Below, in pieces: positions 2,814 through 63,872 of a stretch of DNA of 64,000 nucleotides (position 1 is the stretch's first letter; the number at the start of each line of letters is the position of its first letter). The position numbers were made by a program, and so were the translations under genes. Origin of the DNA: an uncultured Candidatus Saccharibacteria bacterium (GTDB taxonomy: Bacteria > Patescibacteriota > Minisyncoccia > Phycocordibacterales > UBA2100); NCBI GenBank assembly GCA_964584225.1, contig CAZOZG010000001.1, forward strand, positions 21,652 through 85,651, in the 5' to 3' direction. The notes below the pieces were generated by a model that searched no databases, had not been told where the DNA came from, and was given only the letters and a program-made list of their open reading frames with translations.

Positions 2814-3515
2814 ATGGCCAAATCAGGACGTCCGTGGACGGTGGGTGCGCACTCTGAGCTGAAGCAGATCGACGACAATCTCTGGACAGTCGAAGACGTG
2901 TTCGCTCAAGGGATACATCGCCGAATGTGCATCATCAAGCGCTCGGATGGCGCTCTTACCTTTTTTCACGCGGTACCTGTCGATGACGCGACGCTCGCGA
3001 AGATTCGCGCGCTCGGGCAACCAAAATACATCGTCGTCGGCCACGAGCAACACACGGTGGATACGCGTGCCTTTCAAGAAAAACTCGGCCTTTCGGCATA
3101 CGGTCCGAAAAAGCTCGCCGAGGCGCTCAGAAAAAGATTCAATCTCACCGGCGCCCTTGAAGATATCCCCGCTGATCCGTCGATAGAGTACATCGAGACG
3201 CCCGGATCAAAGAAGGGCGAGACGACGTTGCTCGTAAAAAGCGGTGGCGGCTCGCGGGTGAGCATTCTCACTTCAGATGTACTCCAGAATAATCCGCAGA
3301 ATCTTCGACTTATGTTCCGCTTGCTCGGTTTTGCTGGCGGGCCAAAAGTCGTCCCGGTCTACCGCATGCTCTTTACCTCCGACAAAAAAGTCCTCAAAGA
3401 CACGCTTGTGAAATGGGCTGCCATGCCGGGCTTGAAGCGCCTCGTACCCTTCCACGGCATTATCGTCGAAGACGGGGTGAGCGAGGCAATCAAGAAAGCC
3501 GCATCAGCACTATGA
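2814..3515 (+). CDS. hypothetical protein (233 aa)
   Basis: Clean ORF with protein-like composition; no signal peptide; family not recognised with confidence. Confidence 0.5.
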   Translation: MAKSGRPWTVGAHSELKQIDDNLWTVEDVFAQGIHRRMCIIKRSDGALTFFHAVPVDDATLAKIRALGQPKYIVVGHEQHTVDTRAFQEKLGLSAYGPKKLAEALRKRFNLTGALEDIPADPSIEYIETPGSKKGETTLLVKSGGGSRVSILTSDVLQNNPQNLRLMFRLLGFAGGPKVVPVYRMLFTSDKKVLKDTLVKWAAMPGLKRLVPFHGIIVEDGVSEAIKKAASAL

Positions 3516-3943
3516 AGTCCGTCAAAACGAAAAACATCAAGCAAGTCGTGCTGTTCAAAGCGTCACCCCGTGAGCTCTATGCGATGCTCATGGATTCCAA
3601 AAGTCACGCGAAATTTACGGGCGAGAGCGCAAAGATGAGCAAAAAGATTGGCGCGAAATTTACCGCCTACGGCGGCTACATCACCGGCAAAAATCTCAAG
3701 CTGAAGCCCAGTCGCTTGATCGTCCAGGAGTGGCACATGAAAGGCTGGCCCACTGGCCACGCATCGAAAGTGATGTTTCTTTTCACAAAGACGAAAGATG
3801 GCACGAAGCTCACCTTTGGTCACACCGGCGTGCCTGCGACTAGCTACAAAGGCATCAACAGTGGGTGGAAGGAATCGTATTGGGACAAAATGAAAGTTGC
3901 GCTTGGCGAAAAGAAGGCGTCGAAGAAAAAGCGAGCCATGTAG
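3512..3943 (+). CDS. SRPBCC/Aha1-like (activator of Hsp90 ATPase homolog) domain protein
   Basis: 143-aa ORF overlapping the upstream stop by ATGA. Sequence pattern (ELYAMLMDSKSHAKFTG...GGYITGKNLKLKPSRLIVQEW) is typical of the AHSA1/SRPBCC family. Confidence 0.5.
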   Translation: MKSVKTKNIKQVVLFKASPRELYAMLMDSKSHAKFTGESAKMSKKIGAKFTAYGGYITGKNLKLKPSRLIVQEWHMKGWPTGHASKVMFLFTKTKDGTKLTFGHTGVPATSYKGINSGWKESYWDKMKVALGEKKASKKKRAM

Positions 3944-4565: not shown

Positions 4566-4626
4566 CTTCCGCGATAGTGTGCTATCAATTCCCGAGCCAT
4601 CAAATAGATAGGAATAGGAGAAGAGG

Positions 4627-5331
4627 ATGCAAAGAGCAACTTCGCTCGGTGACATCACGCGAAGCGTGATGTGCATATCAAACTTCCGCCCCGGAGTGGG
4701 CCTCGATGCCTCAGGGACGGCGTGGTTCCTCAGGCCCACCGTCGTCGTGACTGCCGCGCATACTGCCTCAGGTATGAGCATGTGCCGTGAGTGGCAGCCG
4801 ATTTTGTGCAGGCACGTTGATAAAGGTGGTTCGAAGGAAGTCGCGTCTCTCAACGCCGCGCGGCTCATGAGTGTCGGGAGTCAACGCATTACTCCCGAAA
4901 CGAAGTGGCCTGTGGCTGCGACGATGTACGATGACATCGCACTTCTGGAGCTCCAGGAAGAAGTCCCTCACGCGCACATGCTCGCAGTGGAGCACGAACT
5001 TCCACCTGTGGGTACTCGCGTCGGCTGCGTCGGTTTCCCGCACGGGCAAATGGCTTTGGCGGTTGGCGAAATATTCGAATATGAATCGGGGCAGCCTCTC
5101 GCCATGAGGTTGAATCTCGGGCTCCAGGGGATCGCACCGACCGTGATGCGTTTCGGATCTTCGGGGGCGCCAATAGTGGGCCGGCGGGGTCGCGCCGTCG
5201 CGGTGCTCACGGGCTTGTGCGAGCCAGACGATCCTTTCGAACTTCTCTTCTCGCTCAGACCGAAACCGACGAACTTTGCGATTCACATCTCGCTGATCAC
5301 GCCTCTACTGCAGGAGCTGGGGCTGGGGTGA
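4627..5331 (+). CDS. trypsin-like serine peptidase (S1 family), no signal peptide
   Basis: Putative catalytic triad context: TAAH (His), DIALLEL (Asp) and GSSGAPIV (Ser). An aggagaagagg SD precedes the ATG. Confidence 0.6.
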   Translation: MQRATSLGDITRSVMCISNFRPGVGLDASGTAWFLRPTVVVTAAHTASGMSMCREWQPILCRHVDKGGSKEVASLNAARLMSVGSQRITPETKWPVAATMYDDIALLELQEEVPHAHMLAVEHELPPVGTRVGCVGFPHGQMALAVGEIFEYESGQPLAMRLNLGLQGIAPTVMRFGSSGAPIVGRRGRAVAVLTGLCEPDDPFELLFSLRPKPTNFAIHISLITPLLQELGLG

Positions 5332-6642: not shown

Positions 6643-6693
6643 TCTAAATCGGCGATTACGAAAACTGTAAGTTCAATTTGGTATAGTGGCGGG

Positions 6694-7154: not shown

Positions 7155-7188
7155 AAAGACCGCGGCGAGATTCGCCGCGGTCTTTGTC
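7155..7188. terminator. bidirectional hairpin (gaccgcggcga-gat-tcgccgcggtc)
   Basis: Sits between convergent genes 6694-7149 (+) and 7194-7574 (-). Confidence 0.5.
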
Positions 7189-7193
7189 GGGGA

Positions 7194-7574
7194 TTACGAA
7201 GCCTTGTTCAATTGCACAGCTGCATTGTGCACGAGGCAGATGTTGGGAATGAGACCCGAAAGCAGCATCTCGCGCGGAGACTTATTGCCGAGCTCCGCAA
7301 GCGGTGCTCTGAGCCATTCTGTCAGCGGCTTGCGCTTGTTGAAACGCCGATCAAGCTGTTCCCGGATGTCGATAATGGTGCCGACGAGTTGGATCTCGCT
7401 CATCACGGGGCAATGAAGCAGTTCCGTTTTCACCGCTCCGAGTTCGGACTTTCGCCTGATCCGTTCGAAAAAGACGCGTGCGATCTGGGTCGGCGCGAAG
7501 CCGAGGTGCTTGAGGGATTCGAATGCAGTATCGATACGATTTGCAAACGACACTTTGGGGGTACGTGCTGGCAT
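7194..7574 (-). CDS. Xre-like/DUF2384-like (antitoxin ParS/MbcA-type C-terminal domain) protein, module copy 1
   Basis: C-terminal W...LGNKSPREMLLSG pattern resembles the DUF2384 domain. An aaggagag SD precedes the start. Paralog of 12971-13408. Confidence 0.5.
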   Translation of the reverse strand: MPARTPKVSFANRIDTAFESLKHLGFAPTQIARVFFERIRRKSELGAVKTELLHCPVMSEIQLVGTIIDIREQLDRRFNKRKPLTEWLRAPLAELGNKSPREMLLSGLIPNICLVHNAAVQLNKAS

Positions 7575-7590
7575 GGTGATCTCTCCTTTT

Positions 7591-7615
7591 TGCCGGTCTG
7601 CACCCTAGCACAAAA
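7591..7615 (-). promoter_or_regulatory. conserved upstream motif copy a (tgccggtctgcaccctagcacaaaa)
   Basis: One of four near-identical ~22-nt motifs placed 25-40 nt upstream of each module gene. It contains an extended -10-like TGcTAGGGT on the minus strand. Confidence 0.45.
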
Positions 7616-7707
7616 TCTTTTTTTAAGAAATGAGCCAGCACGCGTACAAAGGAACGGCCGCGCGGTGAAAACCGCGCGGCTCTGATATGTCGATCGCCAA
7701 GTCGTTC

Positions 7708-7797
7708 TTAGCCGATGAGGTCGAAATAGTTGATCACGGTGAGCACGACCACTACAACCGCGACGAGGAACAAAAAGAATTTCACACACCCTGGCAT
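7708..7797 (-). CDS. 29-aa hydrophobic micropeptide (MPGCVKFFLFLVAVVVVVLTVINYFDLIG)
   Basis: Starts 2 nt after the stop of the CPFC membrane-protein gene, with an aaggag SD inside that gene's 3' end. A positional homolog exists in module copy 2. Confidence 0.3.
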   Translation of the reverse strand: MPGCVKFFLFLVAVVVVVLTVINYFDLIG

Positions 7798-7799
7798 GG

Positions 7800-8117
7800 C
7801 TACTTCTTCTCCTTGAAGTTGGGAATCGTCTGGATGGTTACGCCACTTATGATTGCTGCGACACCGACAACCGCAGCCAGAGATACAAGCACGTCGATGA
7901 CAAAAAACACGCGTAAGACCACTGGCCGGTAGATCACGATCAGTGGGAAGGCGACCCAATAGCTCGTACAGAACGGGCAACTGAGGAACGATTTGGGACC
8001 GAATTTTTTGGTGAACCAGTCCCGGAGCGGCTCACCGATATCAGCTTTCGTCAGGGTGACAGAAATCGCTGACACGGCGAAACCAAGGTAGATGATACCG
8101 ATGAACTGATCAATCAT
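7800..8117 (-). CDS. small 3-TM membrane protein with CPFCTSY motif (DUF1360-like), module copy 1
   Basis: About 105 aa; about 50% identical to 12531-12872; conserved SCPFCTS(Y/F) and IYRP motifs. Family assignment is from memory. Confidence 0.5.
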   Translation of the reverse strand: MIDQFIGIIYLGFAVSAISVTLTKADIGEPLRDWFTKKFGPKSFLSCPFCTSYWVAFPLIVIYRPVVLRVFFVIDVLVSLAAVVGVAAIISGVTIQTIPNFKEKK

Positions 8118-8133
8118 GATCGAGACCCTCTCT

Positions 8134-8157
8134 TCCGACCGGCACCCTACCATAAAA
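8134..8157 (-). promoter_or_regulatory. conserved upstream motif copy b (tccgaccggcaccctaccataaaa)
   Basis: Same motif family as 7591, 12889 and 13424. Confidence 0.45.
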
Positions 8158-8199
8158 CGTGTTTTCGAGAAATCGGGAACCATTTGTTACAATCCGCGC

Positions 8200-8631
8200 A
8201 TGGCAGCAGTAAAGACGCATGTGACGAAGACGAGCCTCGCGAAATATATCGCGAGTATTCCAGACGCTGTGCGACGCGCCGAGGCGAAGAAGGTCGCCGC
8301 GCTTCTGCAGGCGATCACCAAAGAAAAGCCGACTGTGTGGAGCAACGGTATGGTCGGGTACGGCATGTACCACTTCAAATCGGAGCACACGTCGCACGAG
8401 GGCGATTGGCCGATGGCCGCCTTTTCCGCGCGCAAAGCCAACATCAGCATCTATCTCATGGGCGGGATGGGCGCTGCGAAAAAGCAGGGCGCACTTTTGA
8501 AAAAGCTCGGGCCGCACACGGCTTCGAGCGGCGGATGCGTCTATATCAAGCGTTTGGATAAAGTTGACATGAGCGTCCTCAAGAAAGTGATCGCAGCGGG
8601 TTACGCCGACATGAAAAAGAAATACGGCTGA
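8200..8631 (+). CDS. DUF1801 (YdhG-like) domain protein
   Basis: 143 aa; WSNGMVGYG...ISIYLMGG pattern typical of DUF1801; TACAAT -10-like box upstream. Confidence 0.5.
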   Translation: MAAVKTHVTKTSLAKYIASIPDAVRRAEAKKVAALLQAITKEKPTVWSNGMVGYGMYHFKSEHTSHEGDWPMAAFSARKANISIYLMGGMGAAKKQGALLKKLGPHTASSGGCVYIKRLDKVDMSVLKKVIAAGYADMKKKYG

Positions 8632-8632
8632 T

Positions 8633-8860
8633 ATGAAAAAACTCCCGGCGTGGACGCACAAGCTCATCATGCCAGCGCTCCTTACGTTTATCATGACCGC
8701 AATCGTCTGCGCGCTCGCGACGATTCGCGCCGCAGGAGCGAACGCGACGATCGGGCTGTGGTTTGGCTCGTGGATGTTTGCGTGGGCCGTCGCGTTTCCG
8801 ACGGTACTCGTCGTCCTTCCGCTTCTCAACACATTCCTCAAGCTCATCATCGAAGACTAG
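8633..8860 (+). CDS. DUF2798-like small membrane protein
   Basis: 75 aa and 2 TM; pattern MKKLP...FIMT.IV...AFPTVL as in DUF2798. Confidence 0.45.
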   Translation: MKKLPAWTHKLIMPALLTFIMTAIVCALATIRAAGANATIGLWFGSWMFAWAVAFPTVLVVLPLLNTFLKLIIED

Positions 8861-8918
8861 CCGTGTCCTCGGGTGAGCTTTCTGTGCTATGCTCTCGGCA
8901 TATTCATAATTTTTTGCT

Positions 8919-9362
8919 ATGGCGAAAAATAAAACATTTCTCATCGGGGTCACGGTAGTCTCGGCAGTTGTCACGTTTCTTTTGAGTCCCGTTATTTGGC
9001 CCAATTATCCGGACATGATGATAGTGCCGGGTGCCGCGCAGCTGCCATATCTCATGGCGGTTGCCGCAATTGAATCAATCGCATTCGGCGTCGGCGTCGC
9101 ATTTCTTCTCTCGCTCTGGGGATCCATGCACGGCCGCGGTACGTGGGATTGGCTTACGTATCTTTCGGTCGTGTGGCTTCTCGTATCGTGGTGGCCGCAT
9201 GACAATCTCCATCGCACGATGATGATGGGAGATTATTGGCAGCTTGTGAGGATCGAGTGGGGTTTTCATGTGACCTTGATCGCGGCTGGCGTCATCGTTG
9301 CGTCGTTCGTCTGGAAGCGATTCGGGATGCAGGGCATGACACAACCCAATACTTCGGTATAG
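8919..9362 (+). CDS. hypothetical integral membrane protein
   Basis: 147 aa, multiple hydrophobic segments. Confidence 0.4.
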   Translation: MAKNKTFLIGVTVVSAVVTFLLSPVIWPNYPDMMIVPGAAQLPYLMAVAAIESIAFGVGVAFLLSLWGSMHGRGTWDWLTYLSVVWLLVSWWPHDNLHRTMMMGDYWQLVRIEWGFHVTLIAAGVIVASFVWKRFGMQGMTQPNTSV

Positions 9363-9372
9363 TGGCGACACT

Positions 9373-9990
9373 ATGCAGATGAACAAAAGCCGCCTGGAAA
9401 ATCTATCGGACGGCGTTTTCGCGATCGTGATGACGCTGCTCATCATCGAGATAAGCGTGCCATCGGTGCACGGGCCACTTGCGGGAGAGCTTTGGAAACT
9501 TGCGCCGCTTTTCCTAAGCTACTTTTTTAGCTTCGCAGTGCTCTCGAGCTTTTGCCTCGCGCACCATGGCTTTTTTCACGTCTTCGTGCGCACGGTCAAT
9601 CGGCCAATGATCCAGCTCAATATCTTGTATCTCTCGTTCATTTCGCTCATACCATTTTCAGCGCATTTGCTCGGCACCAACCTCGGCGATCAAACGGCCG
9701 TGCTGTGGTACGGAGCCAACATTTTTCTTGCCTCGTCCGTGGGGGTCATTATGTTTTGGTATGCGATCCATTCCGATGAGGTGCAGGTGGCTGATGCACC
9801 AAGGAGAACGATGCGACAGGCCCAAATTCGCTATTCTTTGGCGCCGATCCTTGCCCTGTGTGGTATCGTCGCTTCTTTTTATTCAATTCCGCTCGCGATT
9901 GTCCTCTATCTCATTCCCACCGTGATCAACGCGATCCCCGGAAGTCTCAATGTCATCGAGCGGCTTATCGGCATGCGCATTCCCGATTAG
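9373..9990 (+). CDS. TMEM175/DUF1211-like putative K+ channel, copy 1
   Basis: N-terminal RLENLSDGVFAIVMTLLIIEI signature; about 6 TM; paralog at 56871-57512. Confidence 0.6.
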   Translation: MQMNKSRLENLSDGVFAIVMTLLIIEISVPSVHGPLAGELWKLAPLFLSYFFSFAVLSSFCLAHHGFFHVFVRTVNRPMIQLNILYLSFISLIPFSAHLLGTNLGDQTAVLWYGANIFLASSVGVIMFWYAIHSDEVQVADAPRRTMRQAQIRYSLAPILALCGIVASFYSIPLAIVLYLIPTVINAIPGSLNVIERLIGMRIPD

Positions 9991-10001
9991 CCGATGCGGC
10001 G

Positions 10002-10331
10002 CTAGTGCAAGACGAGTGCGTCGATTTTCTTCAGGGTAAGCGTGAGGGGCCGCGTCGCGGCATCTCCGGAGAATTGATCCATCAGCTGATTCCTCATCGG
10101 AGAATCATCTGGTGCGAGTAAATTTCTATCAGTAAATTGTTCTGAATTCCCTCCGGTGATGCTGGAAGTTTGTTCGCTGGTGCTGTCGAATCCATTGATG
10201 AGATCTGCGCGCAGCCCTTCGTGTCGTTTGATGAGCGGGCCCTCTTCTCCGCCGATGGTCGTTTCGAGTCCACTGAGATACTGCTCGAACTGCGGGTCGG
10301 AGGCTTCGAGAGTTCCCATCGATTCAATCAT
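10002..10331 (-). CDS. hypothetical acidic protein
   Basis: Internal start chosen downstream of the minus-strand terminator of 10433-11455. Confidence 0.25.
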   Translation of the reverse strand: MIESMGTLEASDPQFEQYLSGLETTIGGEEGPLIKRHEGLRADLINGFDSTSEQTSSITGGNSEQFTDRNLLAPDDSPMRNQLMDQFSGDAATRPLTLTLKKIDALVLH

Positions 10332-10432
10332 GCAGGAATGATACCAGAGGTGAGCCTGCATCAATAAAAGGAAACCCCGAGCGTGAGCCCGGGGCTTTTT
10401 ATTCGGTCGAGTTCGCGGCTCGATGCCGCTCA

Positions 10433-11455
10433 CTATCCGATTTTCAGGCTCGGAATGAATTTGGTGTTCAACGGTTTCATCCGAGGCTCGGCGGGAAGAA
10501 TTCGCTTCACGCCGAGAGTTTGGCGGCTAAAGAACAGCCAACCGATGTTGAGGACTCGCACGAGTTGCGGGTCGACGTCGGCGCTGACCGTTTCAACGAT
10601 CATGGAGGTGGCCAGTCGCTTACGCTCGGGATCCGACTCGAAGAAGATCACAATGCCCTTGCTGACAATGATCGAGAGTGCGGCCGCAAGGAACCCTGCA
10701 AGAACCGCAATTTGTACAGCACGTACCGGGTCTTCCGCCGACGGCAGATATGTGCGCGTTGCCCATACCGTCACGCCGAGCGCCGTTGTGATGCAGATGC
10801 CGCATTCAGCGTGTTTTGCAATGTTATACAGCATCTTCCGAACCAGTCGAACAAACGACATGGCTGCACCTCCGAGAAACCAGCTCACGACGGTAAAACC
10901 GTAGAAGACTAGTTGTGATACGACGATCACCGCGAAGACTGAGCCGATCCATCCGATCTCGAGCAGTTTGCGAGTGAAAAAATACACCCGCCCACGTTCG
11001 TACTGCGCTCGCTCGGACAGTTTGTTGATCTCAGCAAACGGCTCCTCAGTCCATTCTTGCTTGAGAAGGAACGAATGCGACGTGAGGAAAAGCGCCCAGA
11101 CCGTAATCGGCAGCCAAGGGCTCATGACCGAGTCGATCTTGAAGAGCGCTACGAGCGAAAGGATGAATGCGAAGAACGCAAACACAGTCATCGCTGCCGC
11201 TCGCAACCGTGCGATTTTTTGCTCGATTGTGACTTCCCGCGCACGATACGCGGTCCACGCCGTCGCAATTTCCGCCTTGCTTGTGCAGACGCCGGTGTAG
11301 ATTTGCGGATGGAACCACCCGAGAGTGCCGAAGAGCGCGCATGCGCCGAGGACAATCATCGGATCATGCGTGAAGAAGCTGAAAATCAGAACGGCGATTA
11401 CCGTCCCGGAAAATGCTCCGGCAAAATGTTGCCAGATTGAACCAGAACAAATCAT
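10433..11455 (-). CDS. hypothetical polytopic membrane protein (340 aa)
   Basis: Long ORF with more than 8 hydrophobic helices, followed on the minus strand by a hairpin at about 10370-10400. Confidence 0.5.
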   Translation of the reverse strand: MICSGSIWQHFAGAFSGTVIAVLIFSFFTHDPMIVLGACALFGTLGWFHPQIYTGVCTSKAEIATAWTAYRAREVTIEQKIARLRAAAMTVFAFFAFILSLVALFKIDSVMSPWLPITVWALFLTSHSFLLKQEWTEEPFAEINKLSERAQYERGRVYFFTRKLLEIGWIGSVFAVIVVSQLVFYGFTVVSWFLGGAAMSFVRLVRKMLYNIAKHAECGICITTALGVTVWATRTYLPSAEDPVRAVQIAVLAGFLAAALSIIVSKGIVIFFESDPERKRLATSMIVETVSADVDPQLVRVLNIGWLFFSRQTLGVKRILPAEPRMKPLNTKFIPSLKIG

Positions 11456-11599
11456 GGTTTGTACCCTCTAGTTACCGAGTCCGAAGACCCACTTTCGCAA
11501 GTATATCTATGGGCGTGTATCGCGCTAGCCTATGGCGAATGCATCACTGGAAATGAGTGATTTGATATACTGCGCCGACTAGTAAGTAACAATCTCGAT

Positions 11600-11950
11600 A
11601 TGAAAAAATTTGTTGTGGTGTATCGCGTACCTTTAGAAGTGATGGCGGAGTGGCGCAAGAACACGTCGCAAGAGGAAATGATGAAGCAGGGGAAAGAGCT
11701 CGGTGGTCAGATGGAGGCATGGATGAAAAAGAATGAGAAATCATTTGTCGACAAAGGCAATCCGCTTGGGAAAAACAAGCGCCTGATGAAAGATGGCGTG
11801 CAGGATGTGAGCAACGATCTCAACTACTACCAGGTCGTCGAAGCCAATACTGTCGACGAAGTCATCACGATGTGCAAAGACAACCCGCACATCGCGGTCA
11901 TTCCCGAGGCGTTCCTCGACATCATGGAAGTCCCGCAGATGGGAATGTAA
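11600..11950 (+). CDS. YciI-like / dimeric alpha+beta-barrel family protein, copy 1
   Basis: 116 aa; C-terminal YQVVEANTVDEVITMCKDNPH pattern resembles YciI-like proteins; paralog at 14398-14748. Confidence 0.4.
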   Translation: MKKFVVVYRVPLEVMAEWRKNTSQEEMMKQGKELGGQMEAWMKKNEKSFVDKGNPLGKNKRLMKDGVQDVSNDLNYYQVVEANTVDEVITMCKDNPHIAVIPEAFLDIMEVPQMGM

Positions 11951-12022
11951 ACATCCGAGCCATTATAGGTCAGTTGCGGCTGGAGCGGTTCTGTTGCAGA
12001 ATCGCCGGTAGGAGAATCAATC

Positions 12023-12346
12023 ATGATCACACTTCTCGCCGAGAACGACAGCATCTCGCTGGTCGTCTATCTTCTGTTCTTCGCGTTCCTCGTCTGGTGT
12101 GGCAGACGCCAGCGTTTTTGGCCGGTCGCCGTACTCGGAGTCTGTACAGCAACGCTTGCCTATCTTCTGGCGCTCTATTGCCGGGCTGCGACCGGTCTGA
12201 GCCCTGAACTGCACGTCGCCACCGGTGCGTTCTTCCTTAGTGCCGCGACGGCTGTCATGTGCGCCATCAGCATGCGCACCATGATTCGCCAGCAAAAAAT
12301 GGACGAATACATCCGTTCGATCAAACATCGTAATATCGGCGACTAA
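12023..12346 (+). CDS. hypothetical small membrane protein
   Basis: 107 aa with 3 hydrophobic helices. Confidence 0.35.
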   Translation: MITLLAENDSISLVVYLLFFAFLVWCGRRQRFWPVAVLGVCTATLAYLLALYCRAATGLSPELHVATGAFFLSAATAVMCAISMRTMIRQQKMDEYIRSIKHRNIGD

Positions 12347-12354
12347 CCGCCGCA

Positions 12355-12392
12355 GAAAAAAGTGGCCGCCCTTGTGCGGCCACAACCTTTTA
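12355..12392. terminator. hairpin gtggccgc-ccttgt-gcggccac with flanking A/T runs (bidirectional)
   Basis: Between convergent genes; a second hairpin (agaccgccggtatgaaccagcggtct) follows at 12400-12432. Confidence 0.5.
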
Positions 12393-12444
12393 TAAAAGAG
12401 GAAGACCGCCGGTATGAACCAGCGGTCTTTTGAGTGCGCGATCT

Positions 12445-12525
12445 TCAGCTAAACGCGCCCATCAGGTAGGCGCCGAAGACGACGACACCAGCGATGATAA
12501 GCAGCCAGACGAAAGGACATTTCAT
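12445..12525 (-). CDS. 26-aa hydrophobic micropeptide (MKCPFVWLLIIAGVVVFGAYLMGAFS)
   Basis: ATG lies 5 nt after the TAG of the CPFC membrane-protein gene, with an aaggag SD. Positional homolog of 7708-7797. Confidence 0.35.
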   Translation of the reverse strand: MKCPFVWLLIIAGVVVFGAYLMGAFS

Positions 12526-12530
12526 TGGGG

Positions 12531-12872
12531 CTACTCCTTCTCTTTAAAATCCGCGTTTGGATCTTTGTTGAAGTGTGGAATCGTTTGGATGACGACTCCG
12601 CTCACAACAGACGCTACGCCGACGATCGCGAAGAGCGAAACGAATAGATCGATCGGCGCGAATGTCAGTATCACCACCGGGCGGTAGATGAGTGTCAGCG
12701 CTGCCGACACATAGAAGCTCGTGCAGAATGGGCACGAGAGTGGTCCGAGACCGCCCCACCGGCCAAATACCCAGCCTCGGATTTGCTTTGACACCTGCGC
12801 TCTCGTCAATGCGACGGAGATCGCTGAGGCAGCAAAGCCGAGGTACACAATCAGGATGAAACGATCGAGCAT
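12531..12872 (-). CDS. small 3-TM membrane protein with CPFCTSF motif (DUF1360-like), module copy 2
   Basis: 113 aa; paralog of 7800-8117. Confidence 0.5.
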   Translation of the reverse strand: MLDRFILIVYLGFAASAISVALTRAQVSKQIRGWVFGRWGGLGPLSCPFCTSFYVSAALTLIYRPVVILTFAPIDLFVSLFAIVGVASVVSGVVIQTIPHFNKDPNADFKEKE

Positions 12873-12888
12873 ACGAGACCCCCGTTTT

Positions 12889-12912
12889 TGCCGAAGAGCA
12901 CCCTAGCATGAA
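12889..12912 (-). promoter_or_regulatory. conserved upstream motif copy c (tgccgaagagcaccctagcatgaa)
   Basis: Same motif family. Confidence 0.4.
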
Positions 12913-12970
12913 GCTCCGGTAAAAGGAAAGGCCGCCCCTCGATTTTCTCGGGGCGGCCTTTTGCTGAAGG

Positions 12971-13408
12971 CTAGTTGGGAGCGAATAGTCGCAGCGACAT
13001 CGCCACAAATGTCACGAGCTTGGAATTCGCCTTCTCAAAGTTCAGCTCCTGGAGACGAATCAGCACGGCAGCCACGAGAAAGAGGCGGCCCTCCGTGAGC
13101 ATTGTCTTTGGCGAATTGCCGAGGCCCTTGTCTTTGCGTCGCACCCAACGCTGTACTTCTTTTTCCGATGTGAAGTGTCGCAACGCGAGCCGCCGGATCT
13201 TCACGAGCCACTCGGATCGGTCCAACACATCCATGTTTTGGAATTTCGTATTGGCGAGCCTGCGCCGAAGCGCGCGGATCTGCGCAGGCGTTCCGTTCAC
13301 GAGTCCGTAGACGCGTGCTCTTTCTTCGATCGAGAATCCGAGCTGCTCCAGCGCTTCAAAACCCGCGTGCACCTTCGCGCGGTATTTTTCAGCTTTCATC
13401 CATGCCAT
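12971..13408 (-). CDS. Xre-like/DUF2384-like protein, module copy 2
   Basis: 145 aa; shares the LGNSPKTMLTEG C-terminal pattern with 7194-7574; aaggag SD. Confidence 0.5.
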   Translation of the reverse strand: MAWMKAEKYRAKVHAGFEALEQLGFSIEERARVYGLVNGTPAQIRALRRRLANTKFQNMDVLDRSEWLVKIRRLALRHFTSEKEVQRWVRRKDKGLGNSPKTMLTEGRLFLVAAVLIRLQELNFEKANSKLVTFVAMSLRLFAPN

Positions 13409-13423
13409 CTTTTGTACTCCTTA

Positions 13424-13449
13424 TGCCGACCGGCACCCTAGCACAAAAG
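13424..13449 (-). promoter_or_regulatory. conserved upstream motif copy d (tgccgaccggcaccctagcacaaaag)
   Basis: Immediately upstream of the SD of 12971-13408. Confidence 0.45.
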
Positions 13450-13561
13450 AAAATCTTCGAAAATGGCGCGGTACAGCGCCAACACCAACGAGAAGAGGGA
13501 AATTCATAGCAACGTCTGCTATAGTGGCGCTCGGCAATAGTATTGAAAACGGAGGTTTCTC

Positions 13562-14314
13562 ATGGAGATGCAGACCAGGCGCTTCGCAGCGCCCGTAGTG
13601 CGCAGCTCTGAGAAGCTGCGCATCATGAGTTGGAATGTCTACTATGGCAACGGCGAGAGTCATGCCGCAGAAGTCATTGATGCGCTGCAGTCATTCGACG
13701 GCGACATACTCCTGCTCTATGAGTTGAGTTTGGGGTTGCGCCTTCCGATGCGAATTTCGGAATTGTATCGCTATGGTGTATTTGTCGATATGAACTATCG
13801 ACGATGGCTCTCGCCAGTCCCAGGTGGTGTCGCGCTGTTCTCACGATTTCCGATCGAGCGCTACCGTACTGTGAAAACGGCTAAAAATGGATTCTTGCGC
13901 GTACGGCGGTATTACCTTGAAACGCGCGTGACTCTATCGCCGGATTACACACTGACGATCGGCATGATTCACCACACGTTGCCGTTTGAGCTTGGCTACC
14001 GTAGTGCGTCGGAAACACTGCTGCGAGAAATATCAAAGCATCAAGAGAAATACGTGTTCGCTGCGGACTTAAACGCGATGCCGTCGTTCTGGATCACGAA
14101 GGAGATCGGAAAGCGACTCGTGCATCTGGGTCCGCAGTTAGCAATACCGAGCCATCCGGAGAATCGGTGGTTCGCAGACGTCACCCCACAACGACGTCTC
14201 GATTATGCGTTCGCGACTCCTGATGTCGCGGCCAGACGTACCAGTGCCCGATTTGGCGAGAGTAATCCGTCGGATCACAAGCCGCTGATCATCGATCTGG
14301 ATTTGAAAAAGTAG
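13562..14314 (+). CDS. endonuclease/exonuclease/phosphatase (EEP) family protein
   Basis: N-terminal LRIMSWNVYYG motif, C-terminal SDHKPLIIDL motif and an internal D..N motif, as in the EEP superfamily. Confidence 0.65.
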   Translation: MEMQTRRFAAPVVRSSEKLRIMSWNVYYGNGESHAAEVIDALQSFDGDILLLYELSLGLRLPMRISELYRYGVFVDMNYRRWLSPVPGGVALFSRFPIERYRTVKTAKNGFLRVRRYYLETRVTLSPDYTLTIGMIHHTLPFELGYRSASETLLREISKHQEKYVFAADLNAMPSFWITKEIGKRLVHLGPQLAIPSHPENRWFADVTPQRRLDYAFATPDVAARRTSARFGESNPSDHKPLIIDLDLKK

Positions 14315-14397: not shown

Positions 14398-14748
14398 ATG
14401 AAGCAATACCTAGCAATGTTTATGGGTTCGACCGCAGCCTTCGATGCGTGGATGAAAATGCCGGAAGCGGATCGAAAAGAAAAAGAAAAAGCGGGCATGC
14501 AAGGCTGGATGAAATGGGCGACTGACAACAAAGCGAGCATCGTCAACATGGGCTCGCCTTTGGGGAAGACGAAACGTGTCGACAAGAGTGGCATTACGGA
14601 TATCAAAAACGAGATGGGCGCTTGGTGCGTCGTGCAGGCGAATTCGTACGACGATGCAGTGAAACTCTTCATAAACCACCCGCACTTCACGCTTTTCCCC
14701 GGTGAGCGCATCGAGGTGATGGAGTGCTTGCCGATTCCGTCGATGTAA
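14398..14748 (+). CDS. YciI-like / dimeric alpha+beta-barrel family protein, copy 2
   Basis: Paralog of 11600-11950 (shared GSPLGKTKRV, VVQANSYDDAV, NHPH); TATACT -10 upstream. Confidence 0.4.
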   Translation: MKQYLAMFMGSTAAFDAWMKMPEADRKEKEKAGMQGWMKWATDNKASIVNMGSPLGKTKRVDKSGITDIKNEMGAWCVVQANSYDDAVKLFINHPHFTLFPGERIEVMECLPIPSM

Positions 14749-30108: not shown

Positions 30109-30360
30109 TTAACGAAAAAGCGACAAGGCTCCCGGGGGCAGCAGGTCGTCGCCAACGCGGATCGGTTTGTCTTCCTGATGTGCCTTCACCAACAGGTGAT
30201 GAATTCGAATCGCATTCCTGTACACCTCAGATTCTGTCGCGGCGTCGGTCCACTGATCGAGATCCTGAGCCATGAGGTCAGTTGCGGGCGAAACGGATAT
30301 CGTTTTCTTGACCTTTTTAGAATTTCTCCCGACCCCAACGGCTTGTCGTTGCTTTGCCAT
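30109..30360 (-). CDS. ribbon-helix-helix (CopG/Arc/MetJ-like) DNA-binding protein
   Basis: 83 aa; KKTISVSPATDLMAQDLDQWTDAATESEVYRNAIRIHHLL fits the beta-strand plus two-helix RHH pattern; aaggag SD 7 nt upstream. Confidence 0.5.
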   Translation of the reverse strand: MAKQRQAVGVGRNSKKVKKTISVSPATDLMAQDLDQWTDAATESEVYRNAIRIHHLLVKAHQEDKPIRVGDDLLPPGALSLFR

Positions 30361-30407
30361 GGTTCAACTCCTTTGCCGAACAGCAGGCTAACATGGGCCT
30401 TAGAAAA

Positions 30408-47768: not shown

Positions 47769-47790
47769 GCGCTTGTGCTATAGTGGTGGC

Positions 47791-57836: not shown

Positions 57837-57971
57837 GGGTTCTCCTTTTTCCGGACAGTGAGCGAGTCTGAACAAATTCAGAGTCGGTCGCTATCTAAAG
57901 TTAGCGTGCTGGTGGCGCCGCAGAGTACTGCGGCATCCTACAAAAATATAGTCGCTTCGCTTCTTATTTTT

Positions 57972-58365
57972 GTGGAGATGGAGGGAATTGCACCCTCGTC
58001 CAGAGAAGGGAAGATGTATGCTTCTACACAGCGTAGATCATCTTGAAGTTTTAAATCACGTACCTAAAAGATGAACGAAACGGTACGCGATCGAGCTCGT
58101 TGTCTCGGAAATCTGCTGAGCAGACAGAATTCCATGCTTGAGATTTGTTACGCCCGGCGGAAATTAATCAAGCATCATCTCCGTGGACGGCGCTTAGGCT
58201 ACGAGAGCGTAAGCGGGCTGCAGGTCCGCCAATTGAATTGGCGAGAGTACTGCACGTGCTACTTTGTTCGCACTTAGTTTTGAGGCAGTTTCGAAAGATG
58301 CCCCAACTTTGTTGTGCACATACAAAATCCTATTTCCCTGTCGAAACTGATCATCCCCCACCTCC
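57972..58365 (-). ncRNA. ssrA: tmRNA (SsrA), about 392 nt, standard (non-permuted)
   Basis: 5' GGAGGUGGGGGAUGAUCAGUUUCGACAGGG matches the GGGGnnG...GAUUCGACGGG tmRNA consensus. The 3' end is a T-arm-like GAGGGUGCAAUUCCCUC followed by CAUCUCC-A, which pairs perfectly with the 5' GGAGGUG. An internal frame SPIQLADLQPAYALVA-UAA is a plausible tag peptide. It lies immediately downstream of smpB. Confidence 0.7.
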
Positions 58366-60993: not shown

Positions 60994-62064
60994 TCAGTTC
61001 GCGATTTTCCAGTGAATTGTTTCGTTACCGAGGCCGTGCTTTACGTGGCCAATCGGCCAGAGGTTGACTCCTTCATCGGTCACCACTGGTTCCGTGATTT
61101 GCCAATCTTTTTTCTCCAAGGTAATCGTCTCCGGACTTGGTTCGATGCCAAAGAATGTGGGTCCATTGAGCGAAAGGAATCCTTCCAGCTTATCGAGCGC
61201 GCCAAGTTCGTCGAAAACTTGTGTGTACATCTCAATCGCCGCAGGGGAGCAAAAAACGCCAAAAACGACGCACGAGGAAAATTTCTTGGCTTCTGGATGC
61301 GGCGCGCTGTCGGTGCCGGCGGAAATAAACGGCAGGCCTTTTCGGGCAATGTCGCGGACGCGCTCACGATCCTCGCGCGTTTTTATGAGTGGCTTCATGT
61401 GAAGGAGCGTGCGGTAGCCGCCCGAAAAGGCCTGCCGGCGATCGTACATAAGATGCGTCGGCGTGATGGTCGCAACCAATTGCCCGGCTTTTCCGTTCTT
61501 TTCCATAAAGTCGACTGCCTTCGCGGTCGACATATGTTCGAGCGACACCTTGAGCTTTGGATACGAGTCCAAGAGGCGCGGTAAGACGTCTTCGATAAAC
61601 ATGCGCTCACCTTCGTACGGATCTTCTTCTTCGTCGTGATCGTTGAGATGCACCTCGCCGTGCAAAAGAAGCGGCATGCCGAGCTCCTCCATCTTTTTCA
61701 GTACCTCATTCGCCTCGAGAATGCTGCGATAGCCCCACTGGGAATTTGTCGTTGCTCCGTACGGATACGATTTCACTGCATGCACGCCATTGCCGAATGC
61801 TTTTTCAAGTTCGTCAGGCTTCAGATTCTTCGTGAGATAAAAAGTCATCAGTGGTTCAAACGCACTTCCAGTCGGCAGTGCGGCACAAATTTCTTTCTTG
61901 TATTCCATCGCTTGTGTGAGCGTCTCAATCGGCGGCTCGGTGTTGGGCATCACAATCGCGGCGTGAAATTTTGCTGCCGTGATCGGCGTCACCGCTCGCA
62001 GTACCGATCCGCGGCGCAGGTGCACGTGCGAGTCGAATGGTTTCTTGATCGTTATGGTTTGCAT
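60994..62064 (-). CDS. pyrC: dihydroorotase (E. coli PyrC-like type II)
   Basis: DSHVHLR, VMPNTEPP, LLHGEV and GTDSAPH motifs. Confidence 0.85.
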   Translation of the reverse strand: MQTITIKKPFDSHVHLRRGSVLRAVTPITAAKFHAAIVMPNTEPPIETLTQAMEYKKEICAALPTGSAFEPLMTFYLTKNLKPDELEKAFGNGVHAVKSYPYGATTNSQWGYRSILEANEVLKKMEELGMPLLLHGEVHLNDHDEEEDPYEGERMFIEDVLPRLLDSYPKLKVSLEHMSTAKAVDFMEKNGKAGQLVATITPTHLMYDRRQAFSGGYRTLLHMKPLIKTREDRERVRDIARKGLPFISAGTDSAPHPEAKKFSSCVVFGVFCSPAAIEMYTQVFDELGALDKLEGFLSLNGPTFFGIEPSPETITLEKKDWQITEPVVTDEGVNLWPIGHVKHGLGNETIHWKIAN

Positions 62065-62124
62065 ATGCGACGCGTTTAGAATAGCATCTCTCTCGGCCAA
62101 CTTCACTCTATAGAGGAGGAGTAT

Positions 62125-62580: not shown

Positions 62581-62605
62581 GTGAAGAAAGCGCTATACTG
62601 CGCCG

Positions 62606-63757: not shown

Positions 63758-63830
63758 GCGCCCGTAGCTCAACGGTTAGAGCACAGAGCTTATACCTCTG
63801 GGGTTCCTGGTTCGAATCCAGGCGGGCGTA
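63758..63830 (+). tRNA. tRNA with anticodon UAU (reads AUA; tRNA-Ile by anticodon)
   Basis: Manual cloverleaf: acceptor GCGCCCG/CGGGCGU (G1-U72 wobble); D arm GCTC-AACGGTTA-GAGC; anticodon arm CAGAG-CTTATAC-CTCTG; variable loop GGGTT; T arm CCTGG-TTCGAAT-CCAGG; discriminator A; CCA not encoded. TATAAT at 63744-63749. Confidence 0.8.
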
Positions 63831-63872
63831 CATGAAACAAAATAGTGCCTACGCACTGTTTTGTTTCATGTA
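63831..63872 (+). terminator. long hairpin catgaaacaaaatagtgc-ctac-gcactgttttgtttcatg after the tRNA
   Basis: About 18-bp nearly perfect stem directly after the tRNA 3' end. Confidence 0.55.

Follow-up and report, generated by a model that had tools for sequence, protein, structure and literature searches.

Two divergent copies of a gene neighbourhood encoding a DUF1360 membrane protein, a coupled micropeptide and an antitoxin-like protein in a candidate phyla radiation bacterium

The 64-kb stretch of contig CAZOZG010000001.1 analysed here (64,000 nucleotides, hereafter the window) contains two copies of a three-gene neighbourhood. Each copy consists of a small DUF1360-family membrane protein (M), a hydrophobic micropeptide encoded directly behind it (m), and a protein (X) in which a helix-turn-helix (HTH) is joined to a DUF2384 domain. 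The micropeptide is translationally coupled to M, X and M-m form separately terminated units, and all of these units share an unusual promoter and leader. In the reading that we favour, at a probability of about 0.45, M and m form a small membrane complex co-regulated with X, and X, as an orphan antitoxin-like repressor that has been domesticated, is probably what regulates it.

Gene content and transcription units

The original prediction for this DNA described two minus-strand copies of three genes whose order is permuted. All six open reading frames (ORFs) were found where it had placed them, and the ORF list and the sequence agree on the order M-m-X in copy 1 and X-M-m in copy 2. The genes of copy 1 are as follows.

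7800..8117, minus strand: M1, 105 amino acids (aa), DUF1360-family membrane protein with three hydrophobic segments and the motif SCPFCTSYW
7708..7797, minus strand: m1, 29 aa, hydrophobic micropeptide (MPGCVKFF...), starting 2 nt past the M1 stop
7194..7574, minus strand: X1, 126 aa, HTH and DUF2384, similar to NatR, MbcA and ParS

Those of copy 2 are:

12971..13408, minus strand: X2, 145 aa, HTH and DUF2384, similar to NatR, MbcA and ParS, with an additional C-terminal helix
12531..12872, minus strand: M2, 113 aa, DUF1360-family membrane protein with the motif SCPFCTSFY
12445..12525, minus strand: m2, 26 aa, micropeptide MKCPFVWLLIIAGVVVFGAYLMGAFS, starting 5 nt past the M2 stop

The M1 frame stays open back to position 8183, and the start at 8117 is preferred because it fits both the homologues and the position of the promoter. 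The two copies are anciently diverged. M1 and M2 are 55% identical (E = 2e-32) and X1 and X2 only 27% (E = 2e-8), so that an earlier figure of 40-50% for the protein pairs does not hold for X and lies below the value for M. No significant sequence similarity was found between m1 and m2, whose only common features are a hydrophobic helix and an N-terminal Cys(-Pro). A tblastn search of the window returned no third copy. One weak X2-like match, at 61429-61644, was rejected; it lies inside a 370-aa minus-strand ORF (60994-62106) that we take, by eye only and with no profile test, to resemble dihydroorotase.

A strong hairpin with a U-rich tract behind it closes each of the four units; its folding energy ranges from -21 to -27 kcal/mol and its z-score from -2.8 to -7.

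7657..7680, minus strand: intrinsic terminator after m1, 10-bp GC stem followed by a U-rich tail
7155..7185, minus strand: intrinsic terminator after X1, 14-bp stem, -25.7 kcal/mol
12927..12961, minus strand: intrinsic terminator between X2 and M2, 12-bp stem, -27.2 kcal/mol, with a U-tract
12402..12429, minus strand: intrinsic terminator after m2, 12-bp stem, -21.2 kcal/mol

The gaps that separate X from M-m measure 98 and 133 nt, and in both of them a strong intrinsic terminator is found together with a separate promoter element. Because each unit has its own terminator and its own promoter, X and M-m are not one operon. Co-transcription from one autoregulated promoter with tight spacing, the arrangement of type II toxin-antitoxin systems, was not found. 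Each copy instead comprises two transcription units, a bicistronic M-m operon and a monocistronic X gene, in a neighbourhood specific to one clade of Paceibacteria-type bacteria of the candidate phyla radiation (CPR).

A shared promoter and leader

The four units are preceded by the same element, with the consensus TG(C/G)TAGGGTGC-N6-CGG(C/A)A.

8133..8152, minus strand: M1-m1 promoter element TGGTAGGGTGCCGGTCGGAA, extended -10-like TGnTAGGGT, 26 nt ahead of the M1 ATG
7591..7610, minus strand: X1 promoter element TGCTAGGGTGCAGACCGGCA, 27 nt ahead of the X1 ATG and followed by the Shine-Dalgarno (SD) sequence AAAGGAG
13424..13443, minus strand: X2 promoter element TGCTAGGGTGCCGGTCGGCA, 26 nt ahead of the X2 ATG and followed by the SD sequence AAGGAG
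12889..12908, minus strand: M2-m2 promoter element TGCTAGGGTGCTCTTCGGCA, 27 nt ahead of the M2 ATG

The core TAGGGTGC has exactly four sites in the window against 0.64 expected, all on the minus strand and all 26-27 nt before the start codons of X1, M1, M2 and X2. When up to three mismatches are allowed, the 20-mer promoter element likewise occurs at these four sites only (0 expected). If transcription begins ~7 nt past the hexamer, the leader bearing the SD sequence would be ~20 nt long. In most other genes of the window the ATG is preceded, at a distance of only 6-12 nt, by a TGn-extended -10 (TATAGT, TATACT or TACAAT) with a GC-rich stretch, and no SD sequence is present; this spacing suggests that transcription in this CPR genome is largely leaderless. 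Examples of this type are found at 6680-6693, 9355-9372, 47775-47790 and 62590-62605. Few genes are leadered and have an SD sequence, the X and M-m units among them; since both carry the same unusual promoter and leader, they appear to be co-regulated.

Related elements precede M in other genomes. At the locus L005 the sequence TAGGGTG is found upstream of M, and at L001 and L002 it is TAAAG(T/A)G..CGGCA/TGGCA. The best direct repeat at L011 is a stretch of 47 nt that precedes both M and X, with 96% identity between the two.

The X genes of other genomes are preceded by a different arrangement, TTGACC-17 nt-TAGTGT followed by GTTGCCCGCGGAAG and then by a conserved leader hairpin. Among the loci that encode M or X, the element formed by TTGACC-17-TAGTGT and GTTGCCCGCGGAAG was found upstream of X genes only. 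The hairpin has 8 bp (GCGATGCG...CGCATCGC), with some GU pairs and compensatory changes. The conserved promoter and leader lie at L014:434-500, L015:412-478, L016:187-253, L022:3124-3190 and L025:1063-1129, and twice in L018 (3434-3500 and 4504-4570). As proteins, the X genes that carry them, from different genomes and including paralogues, are only 11-54% identical. This region could be an operator or an RNA element. Both X1 and X2 lack the leader hairpin.

The membrane protein and its micropeptide

M1 exceeds the Pfam cut-off for DUF1360 (PF07098; 29.5 bits against 21), and M2, with 19.8 bits, falls slightly below it. The relatives P0002-P0004 carry a precomputed PF07098 assignment, and the hallmark motif is common to the group, all of which bears out the family proposed for the membrane proteins in the original prediction. 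Close relatives of M are few. A word-indexed search of a database of 5.8 billion clusters returned only three more, and a scan of metagenomes brought one further close relative and four distant ones. Scans with the M alignment of one genome per species (GTDB) and of viral contigs returned none. The M subfamily is compact (104-113 aa) and is known so far only from a few CPR-type metagenome contigs. M1 is 62-68% identical to the M proteins of other genomes, against 55% to M2.

Hydropathy indicates three hydrophobic segments, with an acidic N-terminus and a K/R-rich loop ahead of CPFC. The CPFCT[SG]FW-type motif begins the second hydrophobic segment and is invariant in all five aligned sequences of the subfamily. 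Since the distant DUF1360 homologues at L007-L010 contain it too, it marks DUF1360 generally. By the positive-inside rule, applied to the K/R-rich loop, CPFC would lie at the cytoplasmic face of the membrane. AlphaFold models M poorly (pLDDT 51). Families of the MerT, MerF and MerE transporter type, which the Cys motifs brought to mind, gave no Pfam or NCBIfam matches at E<=1, and the literature that mentions DUF1360 gives no function for it.

Six M loci were compared: the two in the window, L001, L002, L005 and L011. In every one of them an ORF of 24-29 codons starts between -4 and +5 nt from the M stop, and an AAGGAG SD sequence ahead of it lies inside the conserved C-terminal FKEK codons of M. 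For m1 the SD sequence falls within FKEK of M1, and for m2 within the final codons of M2. The peptides are strongly hydrophobic (GRAVY score 1.7-2.3) and all six have a Cys within the first seven residues, followed in five by Pro. Between L001 and L002 the peptide gene differs by many substitutions and a 9-nt indel, yet the frame and the stop codon are preserved. The position, the SD sequence and these frame-preserving changes indicate that m is a real gene, as had been predicted, and that it is translationally coupled to M. In the gene calls returned for the related contigs, m was uncalled in every case. The distant DUF1360 loci L007-L010 have neither m nor X.

The loci L001 and L002 belong to one metagenome-assembled genome (MAG), GCA_021733385.1, in which a 1.45-kb segment consisting of a 69-aa ORF, M, m, a spacer and a 130-aa ORF occurs twice (L001:744-2183 and L002:2540-3971). 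The two segments are 90% identical at the nucleotide level and have different flanks, so the M-m cassette has been duplicated in a second genome also. The 69-aa gene, upstream of M, is found here in place of an X gene; it has no homologue in the window and no Pfam match.

Most likely m is a stoichiometric subunit of M, the two forming one small membrane complex. The N-terminal Cys(-Pro) of the peptide could then meet the CPFC of M at the cytoplasmic face to form a thiol or metal site, a speculation drawn from the invariant CPFC, the conserved peptide Cys and the predicted topology.

The antitoxin-like protein

Individually, the X proteins score below the thresholds of the expected families. 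Against Xre_MbcA_ParS_C (PF09722, DUF2384) X1 has 20.8 bits and X2 19.2 bits, with a cut-off of 24.5, and the NCBIfam model Xre_ParS_antitoxin is likewise matched below its threshold by both. A word-indexed homologue search found no relatives of X2. A full HMMER search with a profile of X1 and X2 recovered 46 relatives at E<=1e-3, most of them ~125 aa long and aligned end to end. In an alignment of 43 members, made up of the short HMMER matches together with P0007 and P0008, PF09722 is matched by 24 at E<=0.01 (best E = 6e-10) and an Xre-like HTH family by one. A profile of these 43 sequences, run against the PDB, matched the Xre protein of P. putida (6GW6_B, 3.7e-6), NatR (8QNL_A, 1.8e-4, over profile positions 12-126, the full length) and VPA0769 (8GUG_B, 7e-4). 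A shallow profile of four sequences had matched only designed helical-repeat proteins, which was judged spurious (an LGxSxEE helix motif).

The predicted structure agrees with the profile. The AlphaFold model of X2 (pLDDT 78) was compared with the PDB by Foldseek, and the top eight matches were NatR, VPA0769, MbcA and P. putida Xre; for the first seven the probability is 0.99-1.00, the TM score 0.49-0.75 and the number of aligned columns 108-120. Since both the family profile and the predicted fold match known antitoxins, X is a genuine protein of the HTH and DUF2384 type, and the predicted assignment was confirmed in spite of the low individual scores. The DUF2384 part of known relatives serves to block a RES toxin (PMC7758455), and their HTH acts on an inverted repeat in the promoter to repress the operon that encodes it (PMC12204516). 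The lack of a RES partner, which had also been predicted, was borne out: a family scan of ~20 neighbouring proteins in the window found no RES protein, and none is annotated in the contexts of L011 and L014-L027.

Neighbourhoods of X

The context of X was examined for eleven X-family genes; those of other genomes came from exact-sequence look-ups of seven X-family proteins. X adjoins M-m in three of these contexts, namely X1, X2 and the gene at L011. The order at L011 is M-m-X, a few kilobases from an EF-Tu gene, as in copy 1. Counted from the other side, M-m adjoins X at three of the five M loci informative in this respect; at the other two, L001 and L002, no X was found within 1-3 kb of the cassette. 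Each of the three X genes beside M comes from a different subfamily and has nearest relatives that are not adjacent to M, and for this reason the linkage is non-random. M1 is closer to the M proteins of other genomes than to M2, which suggests that the adjacency persisted, or arose repeatedly, over a long period that included a rearrangement. The linkage is partial, but not due to chance. Of the general association between the two families that had been expected, the non-random link thus stands, and a general one does not.

At L011 the M-m cassette is bracketed by two pairs of direct repeats, one of the promoter (57-103 and 544-590; 47 nt, 96% identical) and one of the terminator (517-538 and 1002-1023; 22 nt, 91%). 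The matching repeats in the window are 72% and 83% identical. Because near-identical promoter and terminator repeats bracket the L011 cassette, M-m could be gained or lost by recombination.

The solitary X genes have varied neighbours. The X gene of L015, the closest relative of X2 (47%), is followed by an ORF that resembles DinJ/RelB by eye. At L016 X is followed by a GcrA-like gene and at L017 by a TM2-domain membrane protein, and at L022 it lies between FtsH and RecG. L018 contains two X paralogues of different subfamilies (3501-3869 and 4571-4954), ~700 nt apart and separated by a 152-aa gene on the opposite strand, a few kilobases from an EF-Tu gene.

Alternative explanations

In the favoured reading X would be an orphan antitoxin that has been domesticated into a DNA-binding repressor, regulating its own gene and the M-m operon as well. 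Several observations weigh against it. Eight of the eleven X genes (L014, L015, L016, L017, both of L018, L022 and L025) have no M alongside, and because most X genes are so placed, X must have other or additional roles. Part of the shared motif is not special to these units, for TGnTATAGT with a GC-rich stretch precedes many genes and serves this genome as its generic promoter, so the shared 20-mer was dropped as a specific operator; the features specific to the module are only the TAGGGT hexamer and the fixed leader with its SD sequence. Leadered promoters of a loosely similar kind also precede two unrelated genes, an EEP-family gene at 13562 and an 83-aa ORF at 30360, and the likeness of neighbouring promoters could reflect local duplication or gene conversion. 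The inverted repeat that forms the candidate operator is perfect at X2 only and imperfect at the other three sites. With a pLDDT of 51 for M, the M-m complex and its cysteine site stay predictions. Finally, the data set is small, comprising six M loci and eleven X loci, all metagenomic. A bolder form of the same idea, in which toxin-less antitoxins such as X were re-used as repressors or sensors in CPR bacteria and M and m make up a two-subunit membrane complex with a shared cysteine (thiol or metal) centre at the cytoplasmic face, controlled by X either transcriptionally or directly, seems to us improbable.

The adjacency may also be purely historical, the product of recombination between terminator-promoter segments, with X a solitary regulator and M-m the holder of a borrowed X-type promoter. 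This is unlikely, but it is a serious rival. It would account for the 47-nt and 22-nt repeats around the L011 cassette, for the same arrangement in more degraded form in the window, for the L018 gene, 54% identical to the X of L011, that stands a few kilobases from EF-Tu without M-m, and for the generally solitary state of the X family. However, M-m would still be under an X-type promoter, so that co-regulation stays. The adjacency is retained in both deeply diverged copies despite the changed order, and L001, L002 and L005 retain a related promoter element upstream of M with no adjacent X. A further explanation makes both units part of the regulon of another factor, such as an alternative sigma factor or an activator that reads the weak TAGGGT -10, with X co-expressed but separate in function. 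TAGGGT is a poor sigma-70 -10, has no recognisable -35, and is common to all four units at identical spacing, and at three of the four sites the inverted repeat that an Xre operator should have is imperfect, all of which fits such a factor. Nevertheless we regard it as quite unlikely, since no candidate regulator was found in this analysis, the X genes of other genomes have a canonical TTGACC-17-TAGTGT that needs no alternative sigma factor, and the relatives of X are known autorepressors (PMC12204516).

The original prediction suggested a toxin-antitoxin-like system. In such a non-canonical system M, m or both would damage the membrane, and X would neutralise them by binding through DUF2384, with M-m in place of the RES toxin. 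Small hydrophobic peptides are a common kind of toxin, copy 2 has the order of antitoxin and then partner, and X adjoins M-m at three loci. X is moreover a true homologue of the antitoxins of RES systems and has the toxin-binding C-terminal domain (PMC7758455). Against this, a terminator and a separate promoter lie between X and M-m in both copies, and the order is reversed in copy 1 and at L011. X is mostly solitary and the L001 and L002 cassettes do without it. M-m is found among housekeeping genes (EF-Tu in the window and at L011, IF3 and L35 at L001), and the PADLOC models of anti-phage systems gave no matches for X1, X2, M1, M2 and three neighbours. DUF2384 is soluble and cytoplasmic and plugs an NAD-binding pocket, and M has no such pocket. 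The toxin-antitoxin-like interpretation is therefore poorly supported, and we consider it very unlikely.

Genomic setting

The window also encodes EF-Tu, FtsH, transfer-messenger RNA (tmRNA) and tRNA-Ile(TAT). Its FtsH is 81% and 78% identical to the FtsH of two Patescibacteria MAGs and ~63-70% identical to that of Taylor-, Kaiser-, Nomura- and Paceibacteria MAGs, and these identities indicate that the host is a Paceibacteria-type CPR bacterium. The tRNA-Ile, with the anticodon TAT, lies at 63758-63831 on the plus strand; this tRNA is an uncommon bacterial way to read AUA. The tmRNA lies at 57970-58358 on the minus strand and has the tag peptide ANKVARAVLSPIQLADLQPAYALVA.

Small membrane proteins and proteins of no known family make up most of what is encoded around and between the two copies. 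The products that could be named are a trypsin-like protease with a membrane tail, DUF1801 and DUF2798 proteins, a TMEM175-type channel and an enzyme of the endonuclease/exonuclease/phosphatase (EEP) family. The EEP-family gene (13562-14314) is divergent from X2 and has a leadered promoter at 13504-13561 on the plus strand, TATAGTGGCGCTCGGCA followed by GGAGG. As this promoter too is leadered, the region between X2 and the EEP-family gene holds two back-to-back promoters of similar design. The 83-aa ORF (30109-30360, minus strand) has no family match, its own terminator, and a promoter at ~30374-30390 (TAGCCTGCTGTTCGGCAAAGGAG). A second pair of paralogous genes flanks copy 2, at 11600-11950 and 14398-14748, both on the plus strand. 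Their products are ~116 aa long, 29% identical and without a Pfam match, and a relative is found at L014:14-484 (minus strand), divergent beside the X gene of that locus.

Significance

Both protein families were already known. The combination had been predicted to be undescribed, and it does not appear in the literature searched. In relation to that literature, what is new is that this DUF1360 subfamily has an obligatory micropeptide partner, that CPR-type metagenome contigs contain a largely solitary, toxin-less X family, and that X and M-m lie in a neighbourhood with a shared promoter. A coupled micropeptide and a candidate regulator would provide the first experimental handles on DUF1360, a family so far without a function, and the uncalled m genes of the related contigs show that the annotation of CPR genomes overlooks small subunits. 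As the X family suggests, antitoxins of the RES type can persist as stand-alone regulators after loss of the toxin, and they would do so in bacteria with very few classical transcription factors. If the bolder form, with its re-used antitoxin and two-subunit complex, were true, it would give DUF1360 its first functional context and DUF2384 proteins a new class of partner other than RES. No major paradigm is changed, and the functional link between X and M-m is an inference.

Comparison with known systems

X resembles the Xre, MbcA, ParS and NatR antitoxins (6GW6, 9R35, 8QNL, 6FKG, 8GUG) in its length of ~125 aa, its two-part architecture and its fold. Unlike the antitoxins of RES-Xre systems, it has no RES gene or any other partner in the same operon, and is monocistronic and bounded by terminators. 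The family consists of divergent paralogues, two or more of them in the window and likewise in L018; most of its members are solitary, and they come from CPR-type metagenome contigs.

The micropeptide can be compared with two groups of small hydrophobic peptides. Hok, TisB and Fst are hydrophobic peptides of type I toxin-antitoxin systems, and m is like them in being very short, strongly hydrophobic and composed of a single helix. Unlike these toxins it has no obvious antisense RNA locus, although the antisense strand was not examined further; it is coupled to a conserved upstream gene, and its position is conserved across genomes. KdpF and CydX are small hydrophobic subunit peptides encoded in an operon with their membrane partner. 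By analogy, m is likewise a short peptide of a single helix, in the size class of 25-37 aa, encoded on the same mRNA as a presumed membrane partner and beside it. It differs from KdpF and CydX in that it has no sequence relation to them, its partner is of unknown function, its interaction with M is a prediction, and it carries a conserved N-terminal Cys-Pro.

The DUF1360 (PF07098) family comprises membrane proteins of Actinobacteria, Bacillus and mycobacteriophages (phrog_781) whose function is not known. M resembles them in the Pfam score of M1, which passes the gathering threshold, and in the hallmark CPFCT[SG]FW motif. Whereas the distant DUF1360 genes stand without a micropeptide, M is always followed by one that is coupled to it.

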